This document shows positions 43,150 through 44,092 of a DNA stretch of 64,000 nt, one piece after another. The DNA lies in assembly GCF_003790525.1 (NCBI RefSeq), contig NZ_CP033635.1; one strand, given 5' to 3'. The stretch's first letter is position 1. Each line of letters begins with the position of its first letter. Position numbers and translations under genes: made by a program. Source of the DNA: Escherichia coli. Its GTDB lineage: Bacteria > Pseudomonadota > Gammaproteobacteria > Enterobacterales > Enterobacteriaceae. Below the pieces are notes generated by a model that saw only the letters and a program-made list of their open reading frames with translations, did not search any database and was not told the origin of the DNA.

Positions 43150-43912
43150 AAGGTGGTGACTCCAATTAGTAGAACATATATTTTTCGATAAAGGCACCGA
43201 TGACTTTTTCATGAAGTTCTACAGAGCGCGAGAAACAGATAGTTCTGCGGGCCAGACGTTTGATTCGGGTTCTCAGAGGTAGATGTTGCGCTCAATGCGC
43301 TGAGTAAAAATCTTACCAGTCAGATGCTTCTCCTTCGGTAACTCTCTGGTGTAACTACCCCATTCGTCAGTGGTCAACATACCGATGGTAAAAGGGCAAG
43401 CAGCGCCAGCAATTCACGACAGGTTTAATCAGTCCGTAGGCCAAAAGTGTAGGCCAGAACGCCACCAGTTTTCGTGTTGTACGTGTACCAGAGCCAGTGC
43501 TGTCGCGCTTTACTGCCGACAAAACTCCATTGCTCATCAAGTTCGCAGATGAGAGCCATATCAGCATGAGCGACCGGGTATGACGTTATTCTTCGTGGCG
43601 AGAGTTTTTTAAAGTCCGGATGACAGTATTAATGCCGATTTTCAGCGTACGGGCAGTATCGCGAACTCCGGCACCGTTGAAAGCCATTTCAGTGATTTGC
43701 TCTTTAACTCCCGGTTTACGGGCCTCGTAACGGTAAGTGAGCTGAAGCACTCGATGACAGTCACGGCAGCGAAATCGATCATGTCCTTTGGGTTCTTCCC
43801 GTGACGGTAAACCTGAACGGACTGGCAACAGGAGCAATGAAGGTTAACTGTGACCATGAAAGAACCTTAAAAGTGGCTATTATACCCCTAATTCAACTAA
43901 TTGGAGTCATGA
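43150..43912 (-). mobile_element. IS1-family element (variant)
   Basis: About 760 bp bounded by IS1-like inverted repeats (GGTGGTGACTCCAATTAGT at 43150 and its reverse complement near 43890); InsA-like ORF inside. Confidence 0.7.
43586..43837 (-). CDS. insA: IS1 InsA-like protein
   Basis: 83 aa; zinc-finger/HTH pattern (CRDCHRVLQLTY...GAGVRDTARTLKIGINTVIRTLKNS) matches IS1 InsA. Confidence 0.75.
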   Translation of the reverse strand: MLLLPVRSGLPSREEPKGHDRFRCRDCHRVLQLTYRYEARKPGVKEQITEMAFNGAGVRDTARTLKIGINTVIRTLKNSRHEE

Positions 43913-44092
43913 CCGTATTCATAATGGATTAGGTTCAGCAGTTGCTGAAGTGCTTGTAGAAACTTGTCCTGTGCCCATGCGTCGGGTGGGGGTTAAAGAG
44001 CGGTATGGCCAGGTTGAAACTCAGGACTTTTTACAGAGAGAGTACGGGTTAACCGCGCAAGCTATTGTGGCGGCAGCCAGAGAGCTATTGTA
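43913..44092 (+). pseudogene. 3' fragment of a transketolase C-terminal-subunit-like gene, truncated by the IS1
   Basis: Frame reading ...GSAVAEVLVETCPVPMRRVGVKERYGQVETQDFLQREYGLTAQAIVAAARELL stop begins right at the IS1 boundary. Confidence 0.45.

Follow-up and report, generated by a model that had tools for sequence, protein, structure and literature searches.

A transketolase gene stump beside a decayed IS1 element as the probable leftover of an operon deletion in an Escherichia coli genomic island

The short transketolase-like reading frame that follows a defective IS1-family element in this E. coli genomic island is very probably the leftover of an IS1-associated deletion of an operon, a reading to which we assign a probability of about 0.93. 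In the window, i.e., the whole 64-kb stretch of DNA that was analyzed, a 763-bp IS1 takes the place of 5,284 bp that are present in related loci with an intact operon. A preliminary description had presented the region as an IS1 insertion truncating a transketolase-like gene and as a mark of IS-driven gene loss. The gene loss is borne out, since the operon is replaced by IS1, and the agent and the outcome were named correctly, whereas a simple insertion does not describe the locus, in which a six-gene operon of 5,284 bp is gone except for its last 58 codons. The limits given there (43150-44092) lie within 1 to 2 bases of 43152-44093. The features of the region are listed in Table 1.

Table 1. 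Features around the probable IS1-associated deletion, in window coordinates
Feature	Position	Strand	Remarks
ProQ/FinO-family gene, two broken frames	42255-42766	-	Frameshifted according to PGAP in related genomes; broken in intact-operon loci too
Left flank, intergenic	42767-43151	.	Matches L003 and L004 base for base; there between the ProQ/FinO pseudogene and the regulator gene
IS1-family element, defective, IS1H-like, 763 bp	43152-43914	-	92% identity over the full length to 764-bp IS1H-like copies
IS1 terminal inverted repeat, insB end	43152-43174	.	Left deletion junction at 43151/43152
insB remnant	43155-43559	-	TAA nonsense codon, 1-bp deletion and 1-bp insertion
insA remnant	43586-43857	-	Split by a 1-bp deletion; ORFs in differing frames
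IS1 terminal inverted repeat, insA end	43892-43914	.	Right deletion junction at 43914/43915
Split-transketolase C-terminal subunit gene, 3' stump	43915-44093	+	2 nt, 58 codons and TAA
Older IS debris 3' of the stop codon	44094-44460	.	Partial blastn matches, IS256 and IS66 families

The assignment of the element to IS1 made in the preliminary description agrees with its length, its inverted repeats and the Pfam domains of InsA and InsB. Members of the family are about 770 bp long with repeats of about 23 bp; here, the terminal repeats ggtggtgactccaattagtagaa (from 43152) and ttcaactaattggagtcatgacc (to 43914) agree at 20 of 23 positions, each beginning with GGT. The transposase is coded on the minus strand of the window. 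The element shares the 23-bp GGT-type repeats, the insA and insB genes and the A6C motif with its nearest relatives, copies that are labeled IS1H by PGAP; however, those copies are approximately 764 to 768 bp long, and the window element is about 8% diverged from them and has broken frames. The decay is evident directly in the bases. Two insA-like ORFs (43642-43857 and 43586-43837) are read in frames that do not agree, and an alignment with the IS1H-like copy L005 places a 1-bp gap in insA at column 123. Alignment of insB with the same copy, together with a three-frame translation, reveals a GAA-to-TAA nonsense mutation, a 1-bp deletion and a 1-bp insertion. On the other hand, the A6C motif TTTAAAAAAC of the programmed -1 frameshift, which belongs to the insA/insB overlap, is kept (alignment columns 302-311) and is the same in the IS1H-like copy. 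When the frames, which are broken in the actual sequence, were joined in a conceptual translation, the repaired product matched PF03811 Zn_ribbon_InsA (63 bits), PF12759 HTH_Tnp_IS1 (105 bits) and PF03400 DDE_Tnp_IS1 (236 bits; E=2e-70 on the repaired insB), all above the gathering thresholds. The PGAP name of the element in matching genomes is "IS1 family transposase, frameshifted; internal stop." Since insA is frameshifted and insB has two indels besides its nonsense codon, this copy is dead and cannot encode a transposase.

The stump abuts the IS1 end directly, its first base (43915) following the last base of the element (43914), as had been described before; its translation reads (R)IHNGLGSAVAEVLVETCPVPMRRVGVKERYGQVETQDFLQREYGLTAQAIVAAARELL and then stops. 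The remaining length, given earlier as about 59 codons, is 58 complete codons and a broken one. The protein alignment that the preliminary description had suggested for the fragment gave 56 identical residues of 58 against residues 260-317 of the intact 317-aa C-subunit (WP_000609007-type TktC; BLASTP E=3e-38), which places the fragment in the transketolase C-terminal subunit by direct comparison. It is also matched by the final part of the transketolase models of NCBIfam. At the DNA level, 3 of the 179 bases differ from the intact allele, and two of these differences are nonsynonymous (G to E and D to A); these substitutions fit relaxed constraint, with counts too small for a test. That the frame is a chance ORF and no gene remnant might be argued from its Pfam score, for the stump alone covers profile positions 74-124 of the 124 of PF02780 Transketolase_C with 16.9 bits, below the gathering cutoff of 25.9, while the intact allele scores 112 bits; however, the frame shares 97% of its residues and about 98% of its bases with the 3'-terminal part of an annotated, complete gene that has the same genomic surroundings, and the idea can be dismissed. 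PF02779 Transket_pyr, which occupies residues 12-171 of the intact allele, is absent from the stump, and the gene of the adjoining N-terminal subunit, directly upstream in intact loci, was absent from the window by tblastn. PGAP names the stump in matching genomes [quoted passage not shown] Consisting only of residues 260-317, with neither the pyrimidine-binding domain nor the partner subunit, it is predicted to be a pseudogene remnant from which no enzyme could be made. Both the IS1 and the stump are thus predicted to have lost their function.

A search with the stump alone brought up, as a second class of matches with 95 to 99% identity, loci in which PGAP annotates the full 317-aa gene. In two of these, L003 (APEC E12049) and L004 (M25631H), the intact order is a ProQ/FinO pseudogene, a LacI-family regulator gene on the minus strand, PTS IIA, IIB and IIC, the transketolase N-subunit (276 aa) and C-subunit (317 aa), a transposase remnant and a YadA-like protein. 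In the window, too, the ProQ/FinO pseudogene of these loci lies to the left, and their transposase remnant and YadA-like gene lie to the right. PTS IIC belongs to the ascorbate family (NCBIfam NF009549, 989 bits). In Pfam, the intact C-subunit is composed of Transket_pyr and Transketolase_C, and the 276-aa protein upstream of it is Transketolase_N. The deletion junctions are seen directly at the base level. On the left, identity to L003 stops at window position 43151, corresponding to L003 1716; beyond this point, the window enters the IS1 end, and L003 runs into AT-rich DNA toward the regulator gene. On the right, identity restarts at window position 43915, corresponding to L003 7001, position 2 of codon 259 in the C-subunit gene. 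Thus, L003 1717-7000 (5,284 bp) is missing, with the IS1 in its place, and the loss begins 207 bp outside the LacI-family gene, on its 3' side, and ends at codon 259 of the C-subunit. Gone with this stretch are the LacI-family regulator gene, the genes of PTS IIA, IIB and IIC, that of the N-subunit and, from the C-subunit gene, the first 258 codons and one further nucleotide.

When TktC, TktN, PTS IIC and the LacI-family regulator, the four largest of the missing proteins, were searched for by tblastn in the 64-kb window, only TktC residues 260-317 were found of the operon. The 5' part of the gene, which the preliminary description had proposed to look for elsewhere, is therefore not in the window; in other genomes, the operon can be present a second time, and intact, at another locus. 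The single further match in the window was a LacI-family gene at 26344-27282, which at 29% identity is unrelated and is probably idnR.

In a collection of 5,426 complete E. coli genomes, the deletion allele was found in 289 (approximately 5%), at 99.9% identity over window positions 42900-44400 (1,501 bp) and with the same PGAP structure, in which the IS1 pseudogene and the incomplete transketolase gene are accompanied by a transposase remnant. The intact operon, which would represent the ancestral arrangement and was counted where at least 80% of L003:1400-7300 was covered, is present in 132 genomes, and the 3' fragment, in whatever form, in 366. About 57 genomes, a number derived from these counts, appear to carry both alleles together in paralogous islands. 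In strain 135 (NZ_CP080260.1), the intact operon lies at 166,866-172,766 and the IS1-deleted allele at 768,617-769,544. Copies of the IS1 at 99% identity or more were found in 290 records, which are essentially the same set as the 289 genomes carrying the junction; the decayed copy is thus essentially confined to this locus. No second copy of the same IS1 was found elsewhere in the 64-kb window.

Had an IS1 simply inserted into the C-subunit gene, leaving the 5' portion of that gene beyond the IS, the stump would start exactly at the IS1 end, as it does. However, the DNA on the left flank is not the 5' part of that gene; it is an intergenic sequence, found 5.3 kb farther upstream where the locus is intact, and TktC residues 1-259, TktN and PTS IIC are all missing from the window by tblastn. 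An IS1 that arrived by simple insertion is bordered by a direct target duplication of 8 to 9 bp, whereas the 9 bp on the two sides of the window element differ (acaaacgaa on the left and gtattcata on the right); the absence of a duplication is again a direct observation, and because of it the locus is not the product of a simple insertion. We regard such an insertion as extremely improbable. Under the reading of an IS1-associated deletion, the path of events, which we infer, would have begun with the insertion of IS1 at one endpoint, followed by removal of the adjacent DNA; the element would have transposed within the molecule into the other endpoint, or it would have undergone homologous recombination with another IS1 copy in direct repeat. 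The event would have occurred once, after which the allele may have spread and the IS1 gathered its inactivating mutations. A single event is indicated because the 289 genomes share a structure 99.9% identical over 1,501 bp and the IS1 copy is found essentially at this locus only.

The two routes of removal end in the same product. The route through a single IS1, in which replicative transposition within the molecule into the other endpoint deletes the intervening DNA, has in our estimate roughly an even chance. IS1 adjacent deletions leave one IS copy and no flanking duplication when they arise by intramolecular transposition, and the window accordingly holds one IS with its exact ends at both junctions and no duplication. 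IS1 prefers AT-rich DNA as a target, and the AT content immediately inside the left breakpoint is very high. Classic IS1 adjacent deletions in the gal region were reportedly described by Reif and Saedler; those in E. coli K-12 are said to have likewise kept one IS, started at the IS end, left no repeat and removed several kilobases. In contrast to them, the present event lies far back in time and has become fixed in an island lineage in nature (289 genomes), and its mechanism is deduced from the product. The alternative is that two IS1 copies in the same orientation were inserted independently at the two endpoints and that homologous recombination between them, within one island or across two paralogous islands, excised the operon. 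This route is quite conceivable, with a chance that we hold to be short of even: many genomes hold paralogous copies of the island region, which gives an opportunity for recombination between islands, but a rare variant would have had to insert twice within 5.3 kb, and the variant (at least 99% identity, 290 records) occurs essentially at one locus. Because the IS1 variant is otherwise absent from the genomes, adjacent deletion by a single IS1 is slightly favored. Intermediates were sought with chimeric junction queries, one per endpoint, in which IS1 with a 9-bp duplication stands beside retained operon DNA (hypothetical junctions of AACCATAGTATTCATA with GGTGGTGACTCC and of GGAGTCATGACC with ACAAACGAACATGCTG). 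Among the 5,426 complete genomes, no place covered at least 80% of either query, which weighs against both routes: none of these genomes has one IS1 beside an intact operon, as expected before an adjacent deletion, and neither of the single-insertion intermediates of the two-copy route occurs in any of them.

The nearest solved structure to the intact C-subunit is the C-terminal chain of the split transketolase of Carboxydothermus hydrogenoformans (PDB accession numbers 6YAJ and 6YAK), which the intact E. coli allele matches over residues 12-315 (E=1e-70). As in that enzyme, the intact allele combines Transket_pyr with Transketolase_C, and Transketolase_N forms a separate subunit of 276 aa. 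The intact allele would encode a split transketolase, whose activity and substrate are predicted from homology. A report on PAI I5155 of APEC IMT5155 places an ascorbate-type PTS IIABC beside a transketolase-like gene (PMC4232414). The gene content given there is that of L003 and L004, and the description suggests that the locus is the same; PAI I5155 would then have the ascorbate PTS and transketolase cluster of which the window has the deleted version. Two other candidates were considered. The tkt1 gene of APEC O1 was rejected, being a full-length transketolase gene on a different, 16-kb island. For the vpe PTS operon of UPEC, to which citing papers give four ORFs beside deoK, a differing context, no identity is claimed.

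The locus is a case of ordinary IS-mediated reductive evolution in a genomic island, and its parts are already annotated in public genomes. What the analysis records is the exact loss, i.e., 5,284 bp of a LacI-regulated operon of an ascorbate-family PTS and a split transketolase, and its importance beyond such bookkeeping is small. The junction could act as a marker of a lineage or island variant, and the two alleles, one intact and one deleted, offer a natural knock-out pair for work on the uncharacterized operon. An outward promoter at the IS1 end that drives a 47-codon GTG ORF (43950-44093) or affects the YadA-like adhesin could, if present, account for the deletion allele being found in more genomes (289) than the intact operon (132). 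We consider such a promoter very doubtful; between 43000 and 45300, 3 promoter-like matches were found against 4.0 ± 2.0 by chance, and the promoter and terminator scan returned nothing above chance.

The debris on the 3' side of the stump consists of an IS256-family end-like piece of about 80 bp (approximately 44097-44178, 83% identity by blastn) and an IS66-family left end with a fragment of a frameshifted transposase gene (44217-44460). It predates the IS1 event because it is also found 3' of the intact gene in L003 and L004. Farther downstream, the gene of a YadA-like trimeric autotransporter occupies 45238-46425, with a longest ORF of 395 aa and a YadA_anchor domain at residues 337-395. 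The corresponding proteins have 419 aa in L003, 452 aa in L002 and 491 aa in L004, so that the adhesin varies in length. In strain 2013C-4991 (L001, NZ_CP027355.1, 10394-17410), the stump is followed by a module of sul2, dfrA36, ISCR2 and floR, which replaces the YadA-like gene. In some strains, resistance genes have thus been acquired in this part of the island, downstream of the stump.

To the left of the IS1, the tRNA-Leu(CAA) gene (leuX) lies at 20979-21063, and the core genes ahr, idn and yjgR extend to approximately 28.9 kb. Beyond this point begins an island of mosaic make-up, which carries toxin-antitoxin genes of the CP4 type as well as antirestriction and AlpA-like genes. Window positions 19000-43151 were not matched over 80% or more at a single place in any complete E. 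coli genome of the collection; the leuX-ahr-idn-yjgR core and the island are each common, and their juxtaposition as in the window is matched best, at 75%, by strain CM2. On the 3' side of leuX, Rfam matches at 13964-14240 on the minus strand comprise the C4 antisense RNA, its a1/b1 target and isrK, which are hallmarks of P4/P1-type phage-derived elements. A full-length ALIL pseudoknot (116 bits, 59512-59628, minus strand), the frameshift-stimulating RNA of the IS3 family, marks another IS farther along the island.
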